Positions 4,701-41,370 of a stretch of DNA of 43,132 bases are shown here, piece after piece. A program made the translations under genes and the position numbers. The notes under the pieces are model-generated. The model saw nothing but the letters and a program-made list of their open reading frames with translations. It did not search any database and was not told the origin of the DNA. The DNA comes from Octopus sinensis (taxonomy: Eukaryota). Location of the stretch: positions 1-43,132 of the forward strand of contig NW_021835075.1 in NCBI RefSeq assembly GCF_006345805.1, read 5' to 3'. How positions within the stretch are numbered: the stretch's first letter is position 1; every line of letters starts with the position of its first letter.

Positions 4701-4736
4701 AAACTGAATTTTCAGAAAATAGGAACTGAAGTTAGT

Positions 4737-5027
4737 GGAGGCGCAATGGCCCAGTGGTTAGAGCAGCGGTTAGAGGATCGCGGTTTCGATCCCCAGACCG
4801 GGCGTTTTGTGTGTTTAGTGAGCGAAAACACCTAAAGCTCCACGACGCTCCGGCAGGGTGGTGGCGACCCTGTTGTACTCCTTCGCGCCAACTATCTCTC
4901 ACTCTTTCTTCCTAATTCTTGGGTAACGCTGCGATGGACTTGCGTCCCGTCCAGCTGGGGGGAACACATACGCCATAGAAACCGGGAAACCGGGCCCATG
5001 AGCCTGGCTAGGCTTGAAAAGGACGCA
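4737..5027 (+). mobile_element. tRNA-derived SINE, head A + tail X
   Basis: Head ggaggcgcaatggcccagtggttag...ggtttcgatcccc; tail gaaaccgggcccatgagcctggctaggc; ends in (ATGT)n. Confidence 0.9.
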
Positions 5028-5237
5028 TGTATGTATGTATATACATACATGTATGTATATATATATGTGTGTGGGTAGGTGTGCACGGACGCGCAATCGT
5101 GTATGTATGGAGGAAGAAGATATATATCAATGTATACATACCGGAGTAATCAAATAAATGTGAAACAAGGTGGAAAAAAGAGTATTCAAATACCAGAGGC
5201 AGAGTAATATGCTTTATTTAAATGCCCCAGAAATATA

Positions 5238-11789: not shown

Positions 11790-12930
11790 CGGGCGGCGAG
11801 CTGGCAGAAACGTTAGCACGCCGGGCAAAATGCTGAGCGGTATTTCGCCTGCCGTTACGTTCTGAGTTCAAATTCCGCCGAGGTCGACTTTGCCTTTCAT
11901 CCCTCCGGGGTCGATAAATTAAGTACTAGTTACGCACTGGAGTCGATATAATCGACTTAATCCGTTTGTCTGTCCTTGTTTGTCCTCTATCTATGTTTAG
12001 CCCCTTGTGGGTAGTAAAGAAATAGGTATTTCGTCTGCCGTTACGTTCTGAGTTCAAATTCCGCCGAGGTCGACTTTGCCTTTCATCCCTCCGGGGTCGA
12101 TAAATTAAGTACTAGTTACGCACTGGAGTCGATATAATCGACTTAATCCGTGTGTCTGTCCTTGTTTGTCCTCTCTGTGTTTAGCCCCTTGTGGGTAGTA
12201 AAGAAATAGGTATTTCGTCTGCCGTTACGTTTTGAGTTCAAATTCCGCCGAGGTCGACTTTGCATTTCATCCCTCCGGGGTCGATAAATTAAGTACTAGT
12301 TACGCACTGGAGTCGATATAATCGACTTAATCCGTGTGTCTGTCCTTGTTTGTCCTCTCTGTGTTTAGCCCCTTGTGGGTAGTAAAGAAATAGGTATTTC
12401 GTCTGCCGTTACGTTTGAGTTCAAATTCCGCCGAGGTCGACTTTGCCTTTCATCCCTCCGGGGTCGATAATTAAGTACTAGTTACGCACTGGAGTCGATA
12501 TATCGACTTAATCCGTGTGTCTGTCCTTGTTTGTCCTCTCTGTGTTTAGCCCCTTGTGGGTAGTAAAGAAATAGGTATTTCGTCTGCCGTTACGTTCTGA
12601 GTTCAAATTCCGCCAAGGTCGACTTTGCATTTCATCCTCTCGGTCTCGATAAATTAAGTACCAGTTATGCACTGGAGTCGATATAATCGACTTAATCCGT
12701 TTGCCTGTCCTTGTGTGCCCTATCTATGTTTAGCCCCTTGTGAGTAGTAAAGAAATAGGTATTTCGTCTGCCGTTATGTTCTGAGTTCAAATTCATCCTG
12801 TCATCCTTTCGGGGACGATAAATTAAGTACCAGTTATGCACTGGGGAAGATGTAATCGGCTTAATCAGTTTGTCTGTCCTTGTTTGTCCTCTCTGTGTTT
12901 ATTTAGCCCCTTGTGGGTAGTAAAAAAATA
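11790..12930 (+). mobile_element. SINE family D as a head-to-tail array of six ~184-bp units
   Basis: Units start at 11839, 12025, 12209, 12393, 12574 and 12758; single tRNA-like 5' head; central gcctttcatcc..cggggtcgataaa..aagtaccag resembles the Meta-SINE domain; TSD ggtacttgtaatactgtg at 11770-11787 and 12931-12948. Confidence 0.9.
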
Positions 12931-12984
12931 GGTACTTGTAATACTGTGTTGGCTTAAACGATAGGGAGTCAAGAAAACAACGGC

Positions 12985-13490: not shown

Positions 13491-13609
13491 TCTCAACGAG
13501 GACGACTATGCCGCTCATTAGACCAGTGACGATAAAATAAAACACTGGGTTCGATTTCAATTATGATGCACTTCATTTAATATATATGTGTGAGTGCGTG
13601 TGTATGTGT

Positions 13610-13910
13610 GAAGGCGTGTGGCTTAGGGCGTTCGACTCATAATCGTAAGGTCGTGAATTCAATTCCCGGCGACGCATTTTGTCCTTGCGCAAGACACTTT
13701 ATTTCACGTTGCTCTCAGCTGGCAAAAATGAGTAGTACCTGTATTTCAAAGGGCCAGCCTTTTTACACTCTGTGTCACGCTGAATCTCACTGAGAGCAAC
13801 CATTAAGGGTACACGTGTCTGTGGAGTGCTCAGCCACTTGCACGTTAATTTCACGATCAAGCTCTTCTGGTGATCGTATCAGCTAGCACGTCCGTCGTCG
13901 TATCCGACAA
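13610..13910 (+). mobile_element. tRNA-derived SINE, head B + tail Y (diverged)
   Basis: ggcgtgtggcttag head; gcaagacactttatttcacgttgctc core; tail matching 25530-25715. Confidence 0.8.
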
Positions 13911-20461: not shown

Positions 20462-21946
20462 TATATATATAGAATTGGCGCGTGAAATAAATAAAATTTG
20501 AATGAAAAGGCGATTATATGAAAAGAAAGAGATTCTATCGTAACAAGTGACTATATTCAGAATTCCAGTAATACTGTCCGTCTGGAAAAAAAATGAACAA
20601 AATGGATTTAAGGAACATCAAGAAAACTTGAAATAATTATCTTTCGTATTTGAATTTCCTGGTAAATTGTATTCCCTTAAAAGCACCTCTCAAGTACTGT
20701 TGAAATATTTCGGAATGATTACATATAAAATGATAAAAATGTGAATGAAATCATAAACTGGAGTGACTTCTTAGCAAAAGAAGTACGAACTTTACTGTAG
20801 TTAATAAAAAAAAACAGTATATATTTTATTCGAAGATCATAAGAGTTTCCTTATATGGAATTTTGTAGAAAAGAGAAGGTATGTAATTTTGTTTCAACTT
20901 ATCTAGAAGCCATTTCTGTTTTCTTCGCTTAATTCATACCGTATTTAGATGACATTGTTAATAACACTTCTGTAGTGAATTGTACTCAAATGTGTTTTAG
21001 TAAAAAAAAAAAAAATATGTACTAGAAGGCAGCATGAATCTCATGTCATTTGAGTTACATGTCCAGCTTGAGATGGAGATGAATGAAAATGCACAAAAGA
21101 TAAGGAAAAAAAAATACAAACCGCTCGTGGTTATTCTCTTTGTTTGAAATATTTCAAGTTAAAGTTTGTGGTTTTGTTTAGTGTCTTAACATTTTGTAGT
21201 CAAAAGCGTGGCTCTCTAAAAGCATGGCTGCTTTAACCAATACCGTTGAAACACCCAAGGGAACAAGGAAGTAACAGAATGTGAAAAATAAAATGAAATT
21301 ATACAGTTTTAATATCTTTTTTCTAAATTTTTATTTTTAGATATTAAAAACTAAAATAAACAGTAAATCAAATTAGGAAATTATTTTTTTGTTCTGAAAG
21401 AAAATTTCAAAAATATATTTTAGTATTAGCATAGAAAAAAAATGGAAGAAATAACAAAATTAATTATAAAATCCCAAACCCCTGTTAGCAATAATAACAA
21501 GGCAAACCTGACATTACCGAAGAAAAATGAAAGAAGAGAGTTGTATTTGTGAGAAAGAAAAGAAAAACAATTAGCGTTATGGGTATATTTTTCGTAAATG
21601 TGAAAACGTGAATGACAGAAGGCATGTGGGATTTGTAATGGTAACGTAGAATTGAAATGAAATAAGCGGACAACCTAGCATTGTACATTTGCTGGTTTCA
21701 GGCATGAAGTTGGAGCAATCAAAGAGAAACATACGTCAAAGAGAAAATGAAAGGAGAGAAAGCAGTCGAAAAATGTTTTTTTAGACGTATTTTTCGTTTG
21801 TTTTACTTCTCTACGTTGAAAAGAATTAGTAAACGTAGCTCTCCAAGCGGACAAACACAAATAAAAAATTTCAGGTCATTCACGTAAGTGAAGAGCACGT
21901 CAGTATCATCACCATCATCATCATCATCATCAGAAGCAGCAGCATA

Positions 21947-22718
21947 AGGCGGCGAGCTGGCAGAATCGTTAGCATGCCGGGCGAAATGCTTAGCGGTATG
22001 TCGTCTGCTGTTACGTTCTGAGTTCAAATTCCGCAGAGGTTGACTTTGCCTTTCATCCTTTCGGGATCGATAAATTAAGTACCAGTTACGCACTGGGGTC
22101 GATGTAATCGACTTAATCCGTTTGTCTGTCCTTGGTTGATCCATTTATGTTTAGCCCCTTGTGGGTAGTAAAGAAATAGGTATTTCGTCTGCCGCTACAT
22201 TCTGAGTTCAAATTCCGCCGAGGTTGACTTTGCCTTTCATCCTTTCGGGGTCGATTAAATAAGTACCAGTTACGCAATGGGGTCGATGTAATCGACTTAA
22301 TCCGTTTGTCTGTCCTTGTTTGTCCTCTCTGTGTTTAGCCTCTTGTGGGTAGTAAAGAAATAGGTATTTCGTCTGCCGCTACGTTCTGAGTTCAAATTCC
22401 ACCGAGGTCGACTTTGCCTTTCATCCTTTCGGGGTCGATTAAATAAGTGCCAGTTATGCACTAGGGTCGATGTAATCGACTTAATCCGTTTGTCTGTCCT
22501 TGTTTGTCCTCTCTGTGTTTAGCCTCTTGTGGGTAGTAAAGAAATAGGTATTTCTTCCACCGCTACGTTCTGCGTTCAAATTCCGCCGAAGTAGACTTAG
22601 CCTTTCATCCTTTCGGGGGTCGATAAATTAAGTACCAGCTACACACTGGGGTCGATGTAATCGACTTAATACCTTGCTCCAAATTTGAGGTCTTGTGCCT
22701 CCAGTAGAAAGAATTATT
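21947..22718 (+). mobile_element. SINE family D tandem array (three 184-bp units plus a terminal unit with an alternative tail)
   Basis: Unit starts at 21995, 22179, 22363 and 22547. Confidence 0.9.
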
Positions 22719-22744
22719 GTTTTTACTATTGTTTCGCTTTTTAT

Positions 22745-25068
22745 AATAAGATGCTTTGGAAAGAGGTACAGAGGGTAAGAAACGTGTTTGGAGGAAGAGA
22801 AGAAAGAATGAAGGATGTAAATTGAAATTTGTTGAAAGGAAGTAAGGAAGTACAAAGAAGATGGGCAGAGTATTTTACTGAGCTATTAAATGTGGAGGAT
22901 GCTATGTAGAGGCACCTATAGTGATTGTAGGAAGAGATAGAATAATACCTGTTGTTGGGGAATTGAACCACTGTGCAATTGGCAGGGAGTAGGTGAGGGA
23001 ATCCTTGCGGAAGATGACAAACCGGAAGGTGCCAGGTATAGATGGGTGAACAGTGGAATGCCTAAAGAAAGGGTGTGTGACAGTGATTGAGCGATTAGTG
23101 AGGCTTATGAATGTTTGTTACATGGCTGAAAGAGTACCAAAGGAGTGGCGCAGTGCCTGTATAGTGCCACTGTATCAGGGGGAAGGGGATAAATGTAAGC
23201 GTGGAAATTTTAGTGGTATAAGTGTGTTGTGTGTTGTTGGTAAACTGTATGGGAGAATTCCGGTTGTTAGGGTGAGGAACCAGAGAGTGTACGAGGGGAG
23301 GAGCAGTGTGGTTTTAAGTGTGGAAGGGGTGTACAGATCAAATATTTGTTGTAAGACAGATGTGTGAGAAGTTTTTGGCAAAACGGAAGGAGGTGTATTG
23401 AGCCATTATGGACCTAGAGAAGGCATATGACCGAATGGCTAGGGATGCAATGTGGATGGTAGCTTGTTGAGAGCTGTTCAGAGATATTATAGGGGAAAAA
23501 GGGCGTGAGTTAGGGTGGGTAGTGAAGTAAATGAGTGGTTTGATATGGTTGTGGAGTTAAGACAGGTTTGTGTGATGTCTCCGTGGCTGTTAAATTTATT
23601 TATGGACGATGTGGTGAAAGAAGTAAATGCTAGAAACCTTGATAACGGAGCCCAAATGGTGGGAGAGAATGGAGAGAAATGCCTGGTGAGTCAGTTGTTG
23701 TTTGCTGATGATACAGCACTGGTGGCAGATTGGGAAGAGCAGCCAAGGACTGGTGGTAGAGTCTGGGAGAGTGTGTGAGAGTAGGAAACTGAAAGTGAAT
23801 TCAGCTAAGAGTAAGGTGATGAGATGTTCGAGAGATGGGAAGGCTGGTAGGATGGATGTGAATATAAATAGTGAGATGTTAGAGGAGGTGAGCGTTTTTA
23901 AGTATCTAGGATCACATCCGATGGGATGGAGGGGTGAGGAGGTGGGATACAGAGTGAGTGGGAAAAGAGTAAGATCCTTGGAGTTGTGAAACGTATGATA
24001 TGAGATAAAAGGTTGAGTATGAAGGGGAAAATAGGTGTGTATGAGGGCGTGATTTTGCGGACAATGTTATAGGGGTTAGAGACGTGGGGACTGAAAGAGG
24101 CAGAAAGGAGGCGACTAGATGTGTTTGAGATGAGGTGTCTGAGGGCTATGGTTGGTGTGACACGGATGGACAGGATGAGGAATGAGGAGATGTGAAGATA
24201 AGCAGGAGTGAAAGAAAAACTAACAACCAAAATTGGATAAACGAATATTGAAGTGGTTTGGTCACATGGAGAGGATGGATGGAGAGCGGATGGTGAGGAG
24301 GGTGATGAAGGCTGAAGTGGTAGGCAGCAGAACCAGAGGCAGACCTCGGTTTGTGTGGGTGGATGAATGGATGGATGGATGAATGGATGGATGGATGGAG
24401 TGAGGAAAAGTTTGGTAGTTAGAGGTGTTGGAGTGAAAGAGGCAAGAGAGTTTATAAATGACTAGCAGTATCGCCCGTCGTTGCTCGGGTTTGTAAGGGA
24501 AATAACTATAAAGCACTTTTAGAGAGTTATAGCCAAAAAATAGCAAAACAATGATGGTAAATTTTTTGAGAGTTAAAAAGGTCGAGTTGCGTCCCCTAGA
24601 CAGTCTGTGGTTTGTGTTACTGATTCTCGACCCCATGTCGAATTTATCGATTGTTTTCAGAACTGGGGGAACTTTGCGTTAGTTTTGAATTATGACATTG
24701 GGCTATGTGTGTGTCAAGTTTCATCAGAATCGGTTGAAAGCCGTGGTCAGGGTGAGGGTACAACCTAACAGGCACACAGACACGCAGACAGACAAACTGC
24801 CGTTTATATAGAGAGAGATAGTAAAGATTAGAAAGTGTTTGTGGACGGTTGAGTGGATTTAGGTGTTGCTCAAATGGGTACAGTGGGTGTAAACCAACAT
24901 AAGCTGTAAGGCCCCGCTGCTGATTTTGAGGGTTGCGTTCTATGTCTTGACCCCATTATAGAATGGGGTTCGCCCCTTTGAGCTGGACAATGAATGGAAT
25001 ACCTGGTGTGTGTCTTGCTGTGGCTATCTTCTAAAAAAAGATGGGGAACAAGCCTGGGTATATGTTTT
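22745..25068 (+). pseudogene. Decayed RTE-clade LINE (reverse transcriptase domain, C-terminus, probable 3' UTR)
   Basis: VPKEWRSACIVPLYQGEGDK..NFSGISVL..VGKLYGRI; LRQVCVMSPWLLNLFMD; LLFADDTALVAD (FADD at 23701-23712); FKYLGS; WFGHMERM; many stops and frameshifts. The 3' boundary is approximate. Confidence 0.9.
24462..24818 (-). mobile_element. Non-autonomous Helitron inserted into the RTE
   Basis: On minus it begins TC and ends CTAG, with a hairpin cccgagcaacgacggg 8 nt before the CTAG; inserted between A and T with no TSD; RTE sequence rejoins across it. Confidence 0.85.
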
Positions 25069-25160: not shown

Positions 25161-25325
25161 TCTCTTTTTCACAGGTTTTGTTGCAGCTCCTAGAGTCTTA
25201 TATGCATGGTGGGCTTGCTATCTGCAGCCTACGGTACCATGCTACCCGTTCTTTTCAGTTATCTAATACTTTCCTGATAATTCTGGCCGTGACAAGGAGG
25301 CAAACCTTTTGTAACAGTTCTACAA
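25068..25325 (-). mobile_element. R4/Dong-clade 3' remnant ending in (TAA)n
   Basis: Minus translation VELLQKVCLLVTARIIRKVLDN*, then a short UTR and (TAA)n (25068-25160). Confidence 0.75.
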
Positions 25326-25334
25326 TTAGCTATT

Positions 25335-25719
25335 GGAGGCGCAATGGCCCAGTGGTTAGGGCAGCGGACTCGCGGTCGTAGGATCGCGGTTTCGATTCCC
25401 AGACCTGGCGTTGTGAGTGTTTATTGAGCGAAAACACCTAAAGCTCCACGAGGCTCCGGCAGGGGATGGTGGTGATCCCTGCTGTACTCTTTCACCACAA
25501 CTTTCTCTCACTCTTACTTCCTGTTTCTGTTGTACCTGTATTTCAAAGGGCCGGTCTTGTCACTCTCTGTGTCACGCTGAATATCCCCGAGAAATACGTT
25601 ACGGGTACACGTGTCTGTGGAGTGCTCAGCCACTTACACGTTAATTTCACGAGCAGGCTGTTCCGTTGATTCGGATCAACCGGAACCCTCATCGTCGTAA
25701 CCGACGGAGTGCTTCCACT
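25335..25719 (+). mobile_element. tRNA-derived SINE, head A + tail Y
   Basis: Intact head; TSD attagctatt at 25325-25334 and 25720-25729. Confidence 0.9.
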
Positions 25720-28440: not shown

Positions 28441-29952
28441 ATTGGAGGCCTTGCTAATTCTGTAGTCGAAATGAACATGCATGCTGGTTATTTTAGAAAA
28501 TAGGAAATTAAGTGTAGAAAAATAGAACTATGAATGAAAAAAAAAAGTTGTTCTATATACAATTTGAGGTTGTTGTTATTGTTGTTACTGGTTCTGTTTT
28601 TCTATTATTTGGCCATTTTTTTTTCTTTTATTAAAGAAAAATTCCATAAGGCAGGAAATATTGCTTTGCATTAGTCTCGCTGTGGGAAATCCGCGAAAAT
28701 TCATGCAGTGATAACGCTATGCTGTGCCACCTGCGCGCTTTGAATCGCGATTCTTCCTTGTTGCAGTTATGTATAATTAGACTGAGGAAAAATCTTTCCA
28801 GTTTTTACCATTTTTGTAGATGACACAGCTATGGTGACACCAGCAATGATATCCTTCTTACCAAAGCGTGTATAGTTCCTCAGACCGAAACCTGCTGAGA
28901 TACACGCTAAATATCTTCATAGTCGACAGATGAATTTTTTTTTTTTTTTGTGGAGGTAGAAAAATCTGGAGTTTTAGAATTTTTTTATATATTTAATTTT
29001 AATTTCACCGTTTTTCTTGCTTCTGATTTTATTCATGGTATGAACACACTCAATGTTTTTTTTTTTGTATTTGATTTGGAGATTTCTTTCTGTGCTCCAG
29101 ATTTTCCTCTTTCTCTCGCTTTCTAACTGCATTTTTTTAAACAATCTTTGGTTCTACATCGATATTCCAGTAAAGTCTGGAGTTACAAGAATTTAGTTGT
29201 GCAATACATACACTTATATATACATACATGCATATACACATATTCATATATACGTATGTGTAAATATATATATATATAAAGGTGTGGGTGTGTGGCTGTG
29301 TGTGTATAATTAGTTTTTAACAAGTGAACTTGAAGTACATTAAGCTATAAATAGCAACATATCACTTTTGGATTAAAAAAGTCTTCGGATAGAAAAATTC
29401 AAAAGCTGCCCGTCGGATTGAAACCCTCATTTCTAACATTCGCTGTAAGCTATCGTTCTACTATTTTTTTCTATTCATTGTCTATCATAAATAATATTTA
29501 TTTTACATATAAAGAGAATGCACCTCAGAAGAACGACAAAGGACCACGCGATAAGAACAGTAAAGAACACACACAATAGATACGGCCATACTCGAACTCT
29601 CATCAGTTATCGACCAAATATGATCACAATTTCGACACCTTCTGATAATATTGTTCAATTTTTTTTTTTTGTGGTAGCAACGTAAGCTGTTGGGACCATT
29701 ATAAATGTGAGGGCATGGTAGACGTCAGCAAACAAAATATATGAATCAAGTTCAATAAAGGTAAAAGATAATGTTTGCATATTGAACGCTAGAAAAGAGT
29801 TATAAGGGGTATGGTAAAAAGCATATAATCCGAAAGAAAGAATGAAAGAAAGAAGCAAGGACAAATAATTACGAAATAATTACGAAAGACACCGTGAGAA
29901 TATATACATTATTTACATTTGACGGATATTCGTCTTCATCTTGTTTGTTGTT

Positions 29953-29998
29953 AACACAACGTTTCGGCTGATATGCCCTCCAGCCTTCTTCAGGTGTC
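29953..29998 (-). ncRNA. Minimal type-I hammerhead ribozyme
   Basis: GACAC CUGAAGA A GGCUG GAGGGCAUAU CAGCC GAAA CG UU GUGUU; intact core, 5-bp stems I and II, ACGU palindromic stem III. Confidence 0.85.
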
Positions 29999-30117
29999 TT
30001 AGGGAAATCTCGAACCTGGGTTCTCATTCCTAAGGTATTCTTCGATGTTATTATTATTATTATTATATTATTATTATTATCATTATTATTATTATTATTT
30101 TTATTATTATTATTCTG

Positions 30118-30201
<84 letters not shown>

Positions 30202-30217
30202 GTTCAGGTCACTGCTT

Positions 30218-30272
30218 GGAATTGAACTCGGAATCTTGGGGTTAGTAGCCCGCGCTGTTAACCACTACGCCC
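30218..30272 (-). promoter_or_regulatory. tRNA-derived internal Pol III promoter (A/B boxes)
   Basis: ggcgtagtggtt (A box), gggCTACTAAccc anticodon-like loop, gagttcaattcc (B box); 5' acceptor end missing. Confidence 0.7.
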
Positions 30273-30274
30273 AA

Positions 30275-30320
30275 GACACCTGAAGAAGGCTGGAGAGTAT
30301 ATCAGCCGAAACGTTGTGTT
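30275..30320 (+). ncRNA. Minimal type-I hammerhead ribozyme
   Basis: GACAC CUGAAGA A GGCUG GAGAGUAUAU CAGCC GAAA CG UU GUGUU; differs from the minus copy only in loop II. Confidence 0.85.
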
Positions 30321-31213
30321 AACAACAAACAAGATTAGGACTAATATCCGTCGAATGTAAATAATGTAAATAATGTACATAATTCCTCATCTCTTAAATA
30401 TAGAACGACACCGTGAGATATTCGTATAGAAATACGATAATAGCAACACGTGCAAAACAACGCTAAGATATCCGTATACTCATGTACAAACAATTTAAAT
30501 TCGTTTTGATTAAGCTTGTAGTTTTGCCTGATGACTTGTTCAGGTAAGACACTGCAAATAATTCGAATATTGAGAAAACTTCAAAATTCACAGACAATAT
30601 GGCTTGACATATCAGGTTTATATTCTGGTTGAATAACTTTTAGCCAAGCGCATTCAATATGGTTAAAGAATACCTAGCACTGCTAGTACTCTCAGTATGT
30701 GCTAGCTGACCAATTGCATTATTTTTATGCAACCGTGTAACCATTGTATCTTTGACGTGTCTTGCTTGTATTCACCGACTAGATTTCAATGCATATAGTT
30801 AAAATGACAAAACTATAAATTATGCTATGAAAATTGCACTTCAGGTTTGTAAGTCCGATGAAGTTATAAGGTGATAAACAAGCATTCAACAATGAGCGCG
30901 TTGCATCTTATAACAGAAACAGCCGTAAAGTGGTTCATGATACAATTTCTTATTCCTTTGTTATTTTTAATTTCTTTAATACTACTCGGTACTCGACTGA
31001 CTCTTTTTTCTGATGATTATGTGTACTGAGTTCTAACATCTCTATGCTTGTCTTCTTTTTTCTAGTTTTTTTTCTGTTTTTTTTTTGCACCTGTTATAAA
31101 ATTGTAACTTAAAAAACTGATGATGTCATTCCACCAACGTGTGGACGCTGGTTGCTCTCGTTCATACTTTACGTTTAAACTTCTGTAATTTTGAATTTTT
31201 ATCACTTCTCATT

Positions 31214-31960: not shown

Positions 31961-32155
31961 TAATGACATGTGTATGCGGTTTACAACTCAAAATAAAATA
32001 CTCAAAGACATCCACAGCCAACAACCATGTATCAGAGATATATCAAAGTAAACTTCTCGTCCGGTCATTCATACAAACCAAAGCAGACGTACAAAGCAAA
32101 GTGCAGATAACAAATTTTGAAGGAACATGAATTGCATAACGAAATTTATTAGCTG

Positions 32156-32315
32156 TAGGCGTAGGAGTGGCTGTGTGGTAAGTAGGTTGCTTTCGAACTA
32201 CATTGTTCCGGGTTCAGTCCCACTGCGTGGCACCTTGACCCGGTGTCTTCTACTATAGCCTTGGGCCGACCAAAGCGTTGTAGTGGATTTGGTAGACGGA
32301 AATTGAGGGAATCAC

Positions 32316-32372
<57 letters not shown>

Positions 32373-32452
32373 ATACACACACACCACATATATATATATA
32401 TGTTTTACTTGAAATGAGTGCGTCGCGTTCAATTAAATAATAAATAATATAG

Positions 32453-32495
<43 letters not shown>

Positions 32496-32815
32496 TCAGG
32501 AGTGGCTTGCTATCCAACCATATGGTTCCAGGTTCAGTCCCACTGCGTGACACATTGGGAAAGGGCCTTCTACTATAGCCTAGGGCCTTGTGAGTAGATT
32601 TGGTAGACGGAAGCTGAAAGAGGCCCGTCGTATGTGTGTGTGTGTGTGTGACTGTGTGTTTTTGTGCGTCTGTGGTTGTCACCCACCATCGCTTGACAAC
32701 CGATGTTGGTTTGTTTACGTCCCCGTAACTTAGCGCTTCGACAAAAGGCGGTGCTCCAGCATGGTGGCAATCAAATGACTGAAACAAGTAAAAGAAATAA
32801 AAGCAATAAAAGAAT
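32156..32815 (+). mobile_element. SINE family C: 5' half (32156-32317) followed by a second, near-complete copy (32500-32815)
   Basis: Repeated ggttcagtcccactgcgtg...gatttggtagacggaa; tail gcggtgctccagcatgg...gactgaaacaagtaaaag. Confidence 0.85.
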
Positions 32816-32921
32816 ATAGGTATACATTATTTTATATAAAGCCCATTATAGCCATCATGACTCTGTGTTGTGGGTATATCAGGCATGCACGCACACACGC
32901 ACACACACACATATATACATA

Positions 32922-35789: not shown

Positions 35790-35910
35790 TATTTAAATGT
35801 TGAAGCGAATCTAACGGTTTTGTGTGTTTCTTAAATGGCTTATAAACACCTTCCACGTTGCAATTGTTTTCGTTGCAGCACACAATCTCATATCCTGTAC
35901 ATCTCCATAT
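35790..35910 (+). mobile_element. 3' fragment of the 36955-37317 fold-back family
   Basis: atttaaatgttgaag.gaatctaacggtttttgtgtgtttcttaaatggcttataaacaccttccacg matches both arms. Confidence 0.8.
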
Positions 35911-35946
35911 ATTTATAAATATATTTATCTAAATATATAAATTCAT

Positions 35947-36172
35947 GTGGAGGCGCGTGGCATAGTGGTTATGGTGTCAGCATCGTGATCGTAAGATTTT
36001 GGTTTCGATTCCTTGAGCAAAACGCTTTATTTCACGTTGCTCCAGTCTAGTCAGCTGGTAAAAATGAGTAACGCCTGCGATGGACTGGCATCCCATCAAG
36101 CTGGGGAGCACATACGCCATAGAAACCGGAAGACCGGGCCCATGAGCCTGGCTAGGCTTTAAAAGGGCGCAT
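35947..36172 (+). mobile_element. tRNA-derived SINE, head B + tail X
   Basis: Similar to 38672-38931, with an internal deletion. Confidence 0.85.
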
Positions 36173-36671
36173 TTATTTTTATTTATATAAATACATACGC
36201 ACACACATATATATGTAGTCGTGTATGTGCAGTGTGTGTGTGTGTGTGTGTGTACGAATGTAAGTAAGGGAATAGTCGATGAAATTGATGCTGTTACATC
36301 ATGCTAAAGATACAACAAATTAATGCCCATCGTAAATTTACTTTTTCTCTTATGACATGATAATATTTCATAATGGAAGTGTCAGAATTTACTCATCGAA
36401 TGCAATACCACGTAAATTTTAATTTGAATGTCAATCGCCCTTTTGTCGTTACGCAGACACATTTGTTATCGTTCAGAAGGAAATTCGGACTCTAAATAGC
36501 GATAAAAGAAAGCCTCGACATGAAATACATACATACATACATGCATGCATACATATATACATACACACACATGCACAAACATATACATACACGCACACAC
36601 ACACACACATGTTCGTGTGTGCATGTTTGTGTGCACTCACGTGTGTCTGCGTGTGCGTATGTATTTATATA

Positions 36672-38006: not shown

Positions 38007-38671
38007 TATGTATGTATATATGTATGTATATGTATCTATGTATATATGTATGTATGTATGTATGGTATGTATGTATGTATATGTGTGTGTGTATGCATGT
38101 ATATATATATGTGTGTAGAATATATTTAAGGGATAGGGACAGAGAGAGAGAGAGAGGGATTGAGAGGGATTGGAGTTTGCATGCGCACACTCATAGCGAG
38201 GCAGTCATTGACATGATGTTATAAATTGTTTCGCCACCTCACTGTGGTCAGTCACACTTAGTTTTATTTGACCTTTTATACTATTTGACCATTTGCTTGC
38301 CAATAGAAGCTTTTCACAAAGTTTGTGGCTGCTTGCGGATGGCCAAAATCAAAAGCATTTGACTAACTGCTCCGACTACTTTTTTCCTTTATGAATCCGC
38401 TGATGTGGCTCGAAATTTGTGCAACTCGTTATGGCTTCAAAATTTAATTAATCATTAGCGACAAAAATAGTATTGATGCCAAAAGGTCATCTTATATTCG
38501 ACTAAACACCAATGCTTTGTTAGGACAGCGGATACTGCATCATTAACCTTGAGAAATCCTCTTCTATAGGCGCGTAGTGCATAAAAGTCCATGTAGATTG
38601 TGGCTGACGAAATTCGTTTCTCACGTCTAAATCGTATGATAGAAGCTTTAGTGAGTTCTATGTCTTTTGAC

Positions 38672-38931
38672 GTGGAGGCGCGTGGCTTAGTGGTTAAGGT
38701 ATCAGCACCATGATCGTAAGATTGTTGTTTCGATCCCCGGACCGGGCGACGCGTTGTGTTCTTCAGCAAAACACTTCATTTCATGTTGCTCCAGTCCACT
38801 CAGCTGGCAAAAATGAGTAACGCTGTGATGGACTGGCGTCCCGTCCAGCTGGGGAACACATACGCCATAGAAACCGGGAAACCGGGCCCATGAGCCTGGC
38901 TTTAAAATGGGCACATTTATCTATTTATTTT
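38672..38931 (+). mobile_element. tRNA-derived SINE, head B + tail X
   Basis: TSD tatgtcttttgac at 38659-38671 and 38932-38944. Confidence 0.9.
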
Positions 38932-39127
38932 TATGTCTTTTGACACCTGAGGGTCAAACAAGCAGTGGTTTTCATGGAAAAGAATAGCTCCTTTCGACTT
39001 ACCATCGTGTTCAAGTATCGTGGAAGGACGACATGGGTTCAGATCAGTCTCTATAAACTTTGCAGCTGATTTGAAATGTTGATACCAAGAACACCATTGC
39101 GTATGCCTCACAATCCACGCTATAGAA

Positions 39128-39457: not shown

Positions 39458-40014
39458 AGAATTGCTGCAGTATTAGAAAGTGAGTGTAATGACTTTTTTT
39501 AAAATTTAAAACCGAATTCCATACAAATACACAGCTTTTGAAATCTTGCATTTTCGACTTAGACATATCCCTGAGTGCACGATATATTCTTTCAGTTTCG
39601 AACATTTATATCGATGGTTGATCGATGTCACGTGTTGTGACTAATAAAAGACTCGATTTCATGTTTACACGTAGTACTCCAGTCAAGAGTTTTACAGCCA
39701 AGAGACAGCTGCTTGTTGTGCTAGCGTTGAGAATATGAATTTAAATTGTCAAAAATAAACACCGGAAAACCGAAGCATTATTCCATTAGTTCACATTGTT
39801 CGACATCAAAGGGAGCAAACGAACGACAGCAAGTAAATGAGAAGGAACTGGCGAAATATATCAATTAAGACGGTAACTTATTGTTCAACGTATTCATTCA
39901 GGAAAATGTGTGAAAGTGGATAAGATCTTTTTCTATCTGAAAATCAGAGGGAGCTTTCTAAAGTCTTTCGAATTACATCGAATTGCTGATGTGTGACAGA
40001 ATATGATCTATAGA

Positions 40015-40421
40015 AGGCAGCGAGCTGGCAGAAACGTTAGCACGCCGGGCGAAATGCTTTGTGGTATTTCGTCCGCCGCTGCGTTCTGAGTTCAAATTCC
40101 GCCGAGGTCGACTTAGCCTTTCATCCTTTCGGGGTCGATAAATTAAGCGCCAGTTACGCACTGGGGTCGATATAATCGACTTAATACTTTCGTCTGTCCT
40201 TGTTTGTCCCCTCTGTGTGTAGCCCCTTGTGGGTAATAAAGAAATAGGCATTCCGTCTGTCTTTATGTTCTGAGTTCAAATTTTGCTGAGGTCGACTTTG
40301 CCTTTCATCTTTTCTGGGTCTATTAAATAAGTACCAGTTACGCACTGGGGTCGACTTAATACGTTTGTCTGCCCTTGTTTGTCCTCTCTGTGTGTAGCCC
40401 CTTGTGGGCAGCAAAGAAATA
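40015..40421 (+). mobile_element. SINE family D dimer
   Basis: TSD agaatatgatctataga at 39998-40014 and 40422-40438. Confidence 0.9.
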
Positions 40422-40988
40422 AGAATATGATCTATAGACAGGATTCGTATAAAAGAATCTATCTGGTCTTTAATAAAGAAAGGTGTTTGGCAGAGAGTGC
40501 GTAATAAGCCCCCACAACAGTTAGTAACACTAAATATGACTTTCAGGTATACGTGGATACTTTTCAGGGATGCTAGTTCGGAGGGCTAGCACTTAATGTC
40601 ACCTTTACACAAAAGTGTAGATATGTGAAAGTGTACCGTAACAATTGAAACTGGGATTGAGACTGCATGGAGATTCTGATAATCCTGAGTACCACAATCA
40701 CTGGGCAATCGTTAAGCTGCACTCAATTCAGGGACCAGGGAAGAGGTCAATGAATCATAATTTGGTGCAAGATGAAATGCGCAGCAGCTATATCTGTATA
40801 TGTTACTTTGGGGTTTTATGCTCAGAAGCGGAATTGAAAGAAAAAACCAGGAAGGGAAAAATCCAGAGCAGAAGAGAGCATCTTAAGCAATACCGGCAAC
40901 AATATTCTACCACTGACCATAGTTGCTGCTACCGCTGTTTCCTGGGTATTGTATCTTACACTGCCAAGCTTTGCTACAGCTGAAGCAG

Positions 40989-41370
40989 TGGAGGCGAAAT
41001 AGCCCAGTGATTAGGGCAGCGGACTCGCGGTCGGAGGAGGATCGCGGTTTCTATTCCCAGACCGGGCGTTGTGTGTGTTTATTGAGCGAAAACACCTAAA
41101 GCTCCATGAGGCTCCGGCAGGGGGTGGGGGGGGTGACCCCTGTTGTACTCTTTCGCTCCAACTTTCTCTCACCTTTTCTTCCTGTTTCTTGTCCCCGACT
41201 TCCTACGCAACCGGTGAGCCTGGATGCGCATTCATCCATCCGTCGATGCTCTCGGTGTCGGGGGTTGACCTGCTATCTCTTCTGCGGGTCTTACGAATAG
41301 CGAAGGACCACGTTTCGGACTTCTCCCAAGAGGACGAAGACCGCTTCGCTCAACAAACAAACAAACAAAC
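40989..41370 (+). mobile_element. tRNA-derived SINE, head A + tail Z
   Basis: Head A to ~41190, then a unique tail ending in (CAAA)n. Confidence 0.85.

Follow-up and report, generated by a model that had tools for sequence, protein, structure and literature searches.

The 43,132-nucleotide stretch of Octopus sinensis DNA analysed here (assembly GCF_006345805.1, contig NW_021835075.1; the window) contains a 507-bp insert in which a tRNA-like head, a repeat tract and hammerhead ribozymes lie between inverted ends. An earlier note on this DNA had taken it for a non-autonomous short interspersed element (SINE) that borrows the enzymes of Penelope-like elements (PLEs). The insert is instead a 5'-truncated copy, with an inverted 5' pseudo-long terminal repeat (pLTR), of an abundant protein-coding Penelope, and the head, tract and ribozyme are the pLTR of the autonomous element itself. 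We lean towards the reading that this autonomous Penelope would be transcribed as a whole by the enzyme RNA polymerase III (Pol III) from its own pLTR, the SINE-like copies being run-off cDNAs. Copying by Pol III is likely because the family combines a tRNA-derived promoter sequence with a coding strand free of runs of four T (T4), the Pol III terminator. A fuller account, which we regard as about evenly poised, is that the element took up a tRNA promoter in its pLTR, rid its 2.5-kb open reading frame (ORF) of every Pol III terminator and came to be transcribed entirely by Pol III, with run-off cDNAs forming a high-copy 'SINE' that is not a separate lineage. In assuming Pol III transcription the earlier note was probably right, to judge from the 5' ends of the copies and the T4-free strand.

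The identity of the family follows from searches of the 2.72-Gb genome. A query made of the ribozyme arm and the adjoining 'mid' segment gave 2054 candidates, and the 40 that were scored were 93-97% identical. One 29-mer of the family has 3569 exact matches (0 for its reversed control), from which a family size of very roughly 20,000 segments can be extrapolated. Head sequence lies beside mid and arm in 24 of 29 other loci; where loci were chosen by their head only, mid, hammerhead or tail follows downstream in 15 of 20. The sequence upstream of the head, at first common to two loci and itself high-copy, is the C-terminus of a GIY-YIG domain with a reverse transcriptase (RT) before it. The head directly follows the end of the GIY-YIG ORF in 28 of the 29 loci found by this upstream sequence, and is present in cis in 17 of 29 loci found by the RT. 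This contiguity contradicts the idea of a non-autonomous SINE using foreign enzymes. It also disposes of a chance nested insertion of an unrelated tRNA-SINE and ribozyme pieces at the window locus, which we consider extremely improbable: the five head-picked loci without mid, ribozyme or tail within ~475 nt are all that was found in its favour, while the link between head and arm, far from being confined to the window as the earlier note had allowed for, has a fixed order across the family (24/29, 28/29 and 17/29 loci), and a single target-site duplication (TSD) encloses the whole insert.

An autonomous PLE whose pLTR matches the arm, for which the earlier note had proposed to search, exists in the ORF-linked copies. 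One locus (L336) is a full-length copy in one piece, in a further locus (L075) ribozyme and tail run straight into the ORF, and direct pLTRs are present in both of these and in L236. The majority consensus has one open frame of 828-833 codons that passes through the ribozyme, 833 when counted from the ATG in the mid segment. The order of the element is thus ORF end, head, (AAT)n, ATG, hammerhead and the remainder of the 833-codon RT and GIY-YIG ORF. Poseidon-type homologues gave 1583 matches with domains PF00078, PF26215 and PF28514 (RT and PLE-associated). The ORF is 56% identical to that of a full-length homologue (P0003), which likewise starts upstream of its ribozyme and reads through it. 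A local Pfam scan of the frame of one copy (L091) called 0 families, and the GIY-YIG label of the family ORF was read from its motif and from homologues. Similarity and domain order together make it almost certain that the family is a Penelope/Poseidon PLE. The Penelope-type machinery proposed earlier is thereby borne out by the RT and GIY-YIG ORF, the pLTRs and the tail classes. A tandem non-LTR retrozyme was rejected, the copies examined being single or inverted pairs and derived from the ORF. A search of viral contigs gave no relative. Homologues P0001-P0030 form a group of 55-68% identical sequences on long contigs, and at L003, L010 and L107-L109 several Penelope-end copies are spaced no more than a few hundred bases apart, among them, in L010, a near-duplicate with an identical junction.

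All 11 tRNA genes of the same genome that were compared with the family head (8 anticodons) can be aligned with it over the full length, with 40-49 of ~75 positions identical and z values of 4.0-7.5 against shuffles; the best matches are Arg-TCT and Ala-TGC. With the box patterns that we used it is the sole site of an A box and a B box on either strand of the element. ARAGORN at default settings did not call the head a tRNA and in a relaxed run gave only an implausible fold, and Rfam called neither tRNA nor hammerhead in the whole window and one other copy. The hammerheads were identified by eye from the motif. Both have the core CUGAAGA...GAAA, a 5-bp stem I and a 6-bp stem II and as monomers lack stem III; they differ at two loop-II bases only, so that the minimal ribozyme in each arm and the loop-II difference claimed earlier both stand. 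In folding calculations the monomer forms stems I and II only, and two copies cofold into an intermolecular structure. Minimal hammerheads are described as dimeric and of low activity (PMC4209133), and the ribozyme of the anole Poseidon PAc as cleaving only with protein (PMC11167929). The ribozyme of the octopus family is predicted to require dimer formation or protein for cutting. In the family consensus (examples are L028:1775-1800, L380 and L386) the 3' untranslated region (UTR) just upstream of the head looks like the head 5' end in inverted and degenerate form, which suggests that the head was captured in a snap-back event.

If the head is a Pol III promoter, 5' ends should be informative about the RNA start. 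We took 91 segments in chromosome order from the first-listed places of the 29-mer, regardless of their 5' end. Their 5' ends lie within the ORF in 11 cases (two of which, L158 and L159, may be false extensions), at the head 5' edge in 37, inside the head in 13 and in the tract in 30; snap-back copies that aligned slightly upstream (2504-2527) were, after reading, counted in the edge class. Thus 37 of the 48 segments that reach the head edge stop there. Genome-wide, exact head-edge matches number 1258, including a few palindromic sites counted on both strands. Only 246 of them continue upstream, where we estimate that ~65% would do so from divergence alone, and 377 are snap-backs on a palindrome. 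DNA-contig depth in an independent run falls ~8-fold across the head edge, and snap-back loose ends occur in all 4 runs. In three of 30 loci (L222, L231, L247), and in one snap-back besides, copies with head, ribozyme and ORF in cis have their 5' ends at the same edge. The limit is sharp and lies ~14 nt before the A box, about as far as a Pol III start is expected.

The ends could be explained differently. In an ordinary Poseidon, transcribed by RNA polymerase II (Pol II) or by read-through, the head of a tRNA-SINE would once have been captured in the 3' UTR, a hairpin would cause the pile-up of 5' ends, and the absence of T4 would be chance in an A-rich, T-poor ORF. We judge this unlikely, though it is the alternative we take most seriously. 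In its favour, a hairpin and a palindrome lie at the head edge: the upstream UTR and the head form an imperfect hairpin whose energy, ~-13 kcal/mol, ranks it with the most stable 50-nt windows. Rotifer PLEs have pLTR palindromes together with putative TATA/Inr motifs (PMC3846280), and a pLTR start site with an intron is described for Penelope and Chlamys (PMC8557442). On the other hand, many copies extend to a point 5' of the entire hairpin and there abut the flank directly, and equally stable windows exist within the ORF, where the sample is too small to check for stops.

The 2772-nt sense-strand consensus (depth of at least 19) contains 30 runs of four A and no T4, which does occur in decayed copies, scattered, 46 times in 114.7 kb (0.40 per kb). 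As controls we used those 41 of 80 homologous metagenome loci that have a frame of at least 400 aa, the other 39 being dropped. None of the 41 ORFs is free of T4, and together they contain 409 runs against 364 expected from synonymous shuffles; two caveats are that this test sets a consensus against single copies and that some of the controls are not independent of one another. Thirteen T-matched homologues predict 6.6 runs, giving a probability of ~0.001-0.003 for zero. No pair of A and B boxes flanks any of the 41 control ORFs, though several flanks are short. A genome search with a 43%-identical homologue gave top matches that, where inspected, belonged to the same family. Since no PLE family lacking the head was available, ORFs of long interspersed elements (LINEs) served as the control from the same genome, and all 12 carry T4, 6-18 each. 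The 0 of 53 T4-free control ORFs argue against the chance absence that the Pol II explanation assumes, and these external controls are stronger than the nulls internal to the sequence. In support of the Pol II explanation, a second-order Markov null gives P 0.24.

The short copies could also be a system of their own. In such a mixed system the full element is made by Pol II, and the head drives short Pol III transcripts of solo copies that are remobilised in trans, a nascent Penelope-dependent SINE and of all alternatives the closest to the earlier note. We regard it as improbable, slightly more so than an ordinary Pol II element. Short copies do dominate and start at the head, and the window copy has a T4 ~40 nt downstream. 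We compared 43 ORF-linked with 67 short head-and-arm units, self and duplicate loci being excluded here and from the consensus. The short units are slightly less diverged (5.6% vs 6.9%), which may reflect how units were picked, ascertainment differing between the classes, and the net distance between the classes is 0.0008 (permutation P 0.01). However, no diagnostic sites separate them: variable sites are CpG decay or dimorphisms of similar frequency in both. Since the variants of the short copies are also those of the ORF-linked ones, we conclude from these sequences that there is no separate SINE lineage. In addition, the anole Poseidon is described as requiring a part of the ORF that lies past the RT start sites (PMC11167929) and is missing from solo copies, and a mixed system leaves the T4-free ORF unexplained.

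Transcription of the whole element by Pol III has to be weighed against several observations. Pol III RNA is uncapped. The nulls internal to the sequence make the absence of T4 moderately surprising at most (independent and identically distributed sites, P 0.009; synonymous shuffle, 0.03; and the Markov null given above), and runs of four G are likewise absent from the consensus. RNA reads, available from three runs of one study on a related organism, are equally frequent on the two strands, have a profile like that of copy number and do not accumulate at any start; a search of sequencing runs, which showed the family in other organisms as well, listed no RNA run containing it. No intact copy of the element was found. 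On long templates, stops or snap-back could result from the hairpin at the head edge, and other PLEs are known to have palindromes where their pLTRs begin at the 5' end (PMC3846280). The processivity of Pol III is described as weak (PMC10886601).

The further features of the copies suggest how such an element could work. Counted from the cut site, their 3' ends cluster in two classes, at ~+49 to +68 and at ~+90 to +105. An inverted 5' arm is present in 44 of the 91 segments, and a TSD of at least 8 bp, mostly 11-14 bp, flanks 20 of these 44 insertions (control 1/44) as compared with three of the 47 non-inverted ones (control 0; L098-L187). This bias hints that clean priming on two strands makes the TSD. 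In vitro, the anole Poseidon is described to cut both strands, to initiate RT internally at two tail-defining sites and to have a protein-assisted ribozyme (PMC11167929). In the mechanism that we propose, the upstream pLTR of a partial tandem would contain the Pol III start, ~6 nt upstream of its tRNA-like sequence, and transcription would pass through the ORF, which is free of terminators, into the pLTR that follows. The element protein would nick the two target strands ~12 bp apart, and cDNA synthesis would start inside the RNA at two tail sites. Starts at the first pLTR-ORF junction would run off the RNA 5' end after ~300 nt and yield the SINE-like majority, often snapping back on the TGCCC/GGGCA palindrome, and starts at the second junction would give the ORF-bearing copies. 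The insert in the window would consist of a pair of these cDNAs, begun at different RT start sites and joined head to head. The model does not account for the translation of an RNA that has no cap; that the unstructured (AAU)n leader helps in it is speculation.

The anatomy of the window copy (positions 29900-30406, Table 1) agrees with this scheme. As the earlier note had it, the insert is flanked by a perfect 12-bp TSD, GACACCGTGAGA, and an inverted copy of hammerhead and tail bears an extra extension: the arms (29901-30003 and 30270-30372) are 92% complementary, and the plus-strand arm has an additional 34 nt. The copy has one arm of each 3'-end type, the short type in the main copy and the long type in the inverted arm, and its translation gives the first 42 codons of the family ORF. 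The tRNA-like head with A and B boxes holds for the family, where it is colinear with tRNA, and less fully for the window copy, whose A box has lost its first T at the inversion junction (2-nt overlap, 30270-30271). The 'second B-box-like' motif was rejected as a promoter component because it is coding sequence, namely codons 5-9 of the element's ORF.

Table 1. Features of the Penelope copy in the window
Feature	Position	Strand	Basis
Left TSD, 12 bp	29888..29899		Sequence comparison
Main-copy 3' end, short type, ~+55 after ribozyme cut; ORF N-terminal codons; putative first RT start site	29900..29952	-	Translation; bimodal 3' ends
Minimal type-I hammerhead inside ORF start; stems I and II, core CUGAAGA/GAAA, palindromic AACGUU; predicted cut 29958/29957	29953..29998	-	Motif; architecture as described in PMC4209133
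'Mid' segment; predicted ORF start ATG at 30027; B-box-like motif 30016-30003 is coding	29999..30048	-	Family-consensus 833-codon frame; homologue P0003
Expanded (AAT)n/(AAG)n tract (~27 nt in consensus); part of predicted 5' UTR	30049..30203	-	Sequence
tRNA-derived head; A box 30272-30262 (minus first base), B box 30227-30219; pLTR 5' end, predicted Pol III promoter	30204..30272	-	Box patterns
Inverted 5'-truncated pLTR; hammerhead 30275-30320 (predicted cut after GUU at 30315), long-type 3' end, 2-nt microhomology to head, two stop codons	30270..30406	+	Inverted-arm alignment
34-nt tail; putative second RT start site	30373-30406	+	Tail and RT start sites as described in PMC11167929
Right TSD	30407..30418		Sequence comparison

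The rest of the window is full of other repeats and microsatellites and has no PLE ORF. Repeats with tRNA-like starts (GGTTAG / GGTTCGAT) at 4731-5042, 13606-13909, 25320-25717, 35909-36184, 38668-38934 and 40986-41192 apparently belong to different SINE families. Very abundant repeats at 11790-12937, 21905-22749, 32146-32837 and 40001-40434, which recur in at least 50 fetched loci, are probably the main host SINE families. Elsewhere in the genome, seven tRNA-Cys genes are clustered within 3 kb (L204), and long open LINE-type RT frames of 765-958 aa, many of them on unplaced contigs, suggest young LINE families (L358-L369).

Much of the organisation of the octopus family is shared with the anole element PAc (PMC11167929) and Adineta Pen2a (PMC3846280), as these sources describe them: a single ~830-aa ORF with RT and C-terminal GIY-YIG, an ORF start that overlaps the hammerhead (the anole ORF begins within the ribozyme), partial-tandem pLTRs, an inverted 5' pLTR with TSD, and an optional 30-40-nt tail with two 3'-end classes. 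The association of TSD and inverted 5' arm is also as in rotifer Penelopes (PMC3846280). Unlike in PAc and Pen2a, a tRNA-derived head with A and B boxes stands at the start of the octopus pLTR, and T4 is missing from the sense strand; PLE pLTR promoters described in PMC3846280 and PMC8557442 are of Pol II type, TATA/Inr or intron-associated. With tRNA-derived SINEs the family shares the tRNA-like A/B-box head and a short high-copy form, and Schistosoma Sm-alpha also combines a tRNA head with a hammerhead, Sj-alpha being placed in the same SINE group (PMC2770079). It differs from them in that the head lies inside an autonomous element, the short copies form no lineage of their own, and the body consists of ORF sequence that includes a minimal ribozyme. 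The octopus elements OK, OR1 and OR2 are also counted among the tRNA-derived SINEs. Non-LTR retrozymes (bioRxiv 10.64898/2026.07.22.740005) and Chlamys MRC1 (PMC8557442) are, like the short copies, short type-I hammerhead elements related to PLE pLTRs, and are proposed users of PLE enzymes. Retrozymes are defined by tandem units, whereas the octopus family is dispersed and contiguous with an ORF; the words 'tRNA' and 'promoter' are absent from the retrozyme preprint. The TRIMp3 elements Cassandra, Helenus and Ajax (PMC10886601) likewise have a small-RNA-derived Pol III promoter inside a terminal repeat, but are described as short non-coding LTR elements, and the same source argues that their autonomous partners must use Pol II. 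Literature titles and abstracts gave no PLE with a tRNA-derived promoter and no Pol III-transcribed autonomous retrotransposon; Repbase, Dfam and SINEBase were outside this search, and the family may be catalogued already.

For repeat annotation the result means that a high-copy family with the look of a SINE belongs to the PLEs. The general view is that autonomous retrotransposons are made by Pol II, whereas Pol III elements are short and do not code for protein, as PMC10886601 says outright. If the proposed reading is true, an mRNA for an 830-aa RT-endonuclease made by Pol III would break this division and raise the question of cap-independent translation. The head edge would then be a sharp marker of the start of Penelope RNA, an open point in PLE biology, and would fit the internal RT initiation of the anole element. 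The combined test for T4 absence and A/B boxes can be applied to any PLE library. The octopus family would also offer a direct view of one way in which SINEs arise from their partners.
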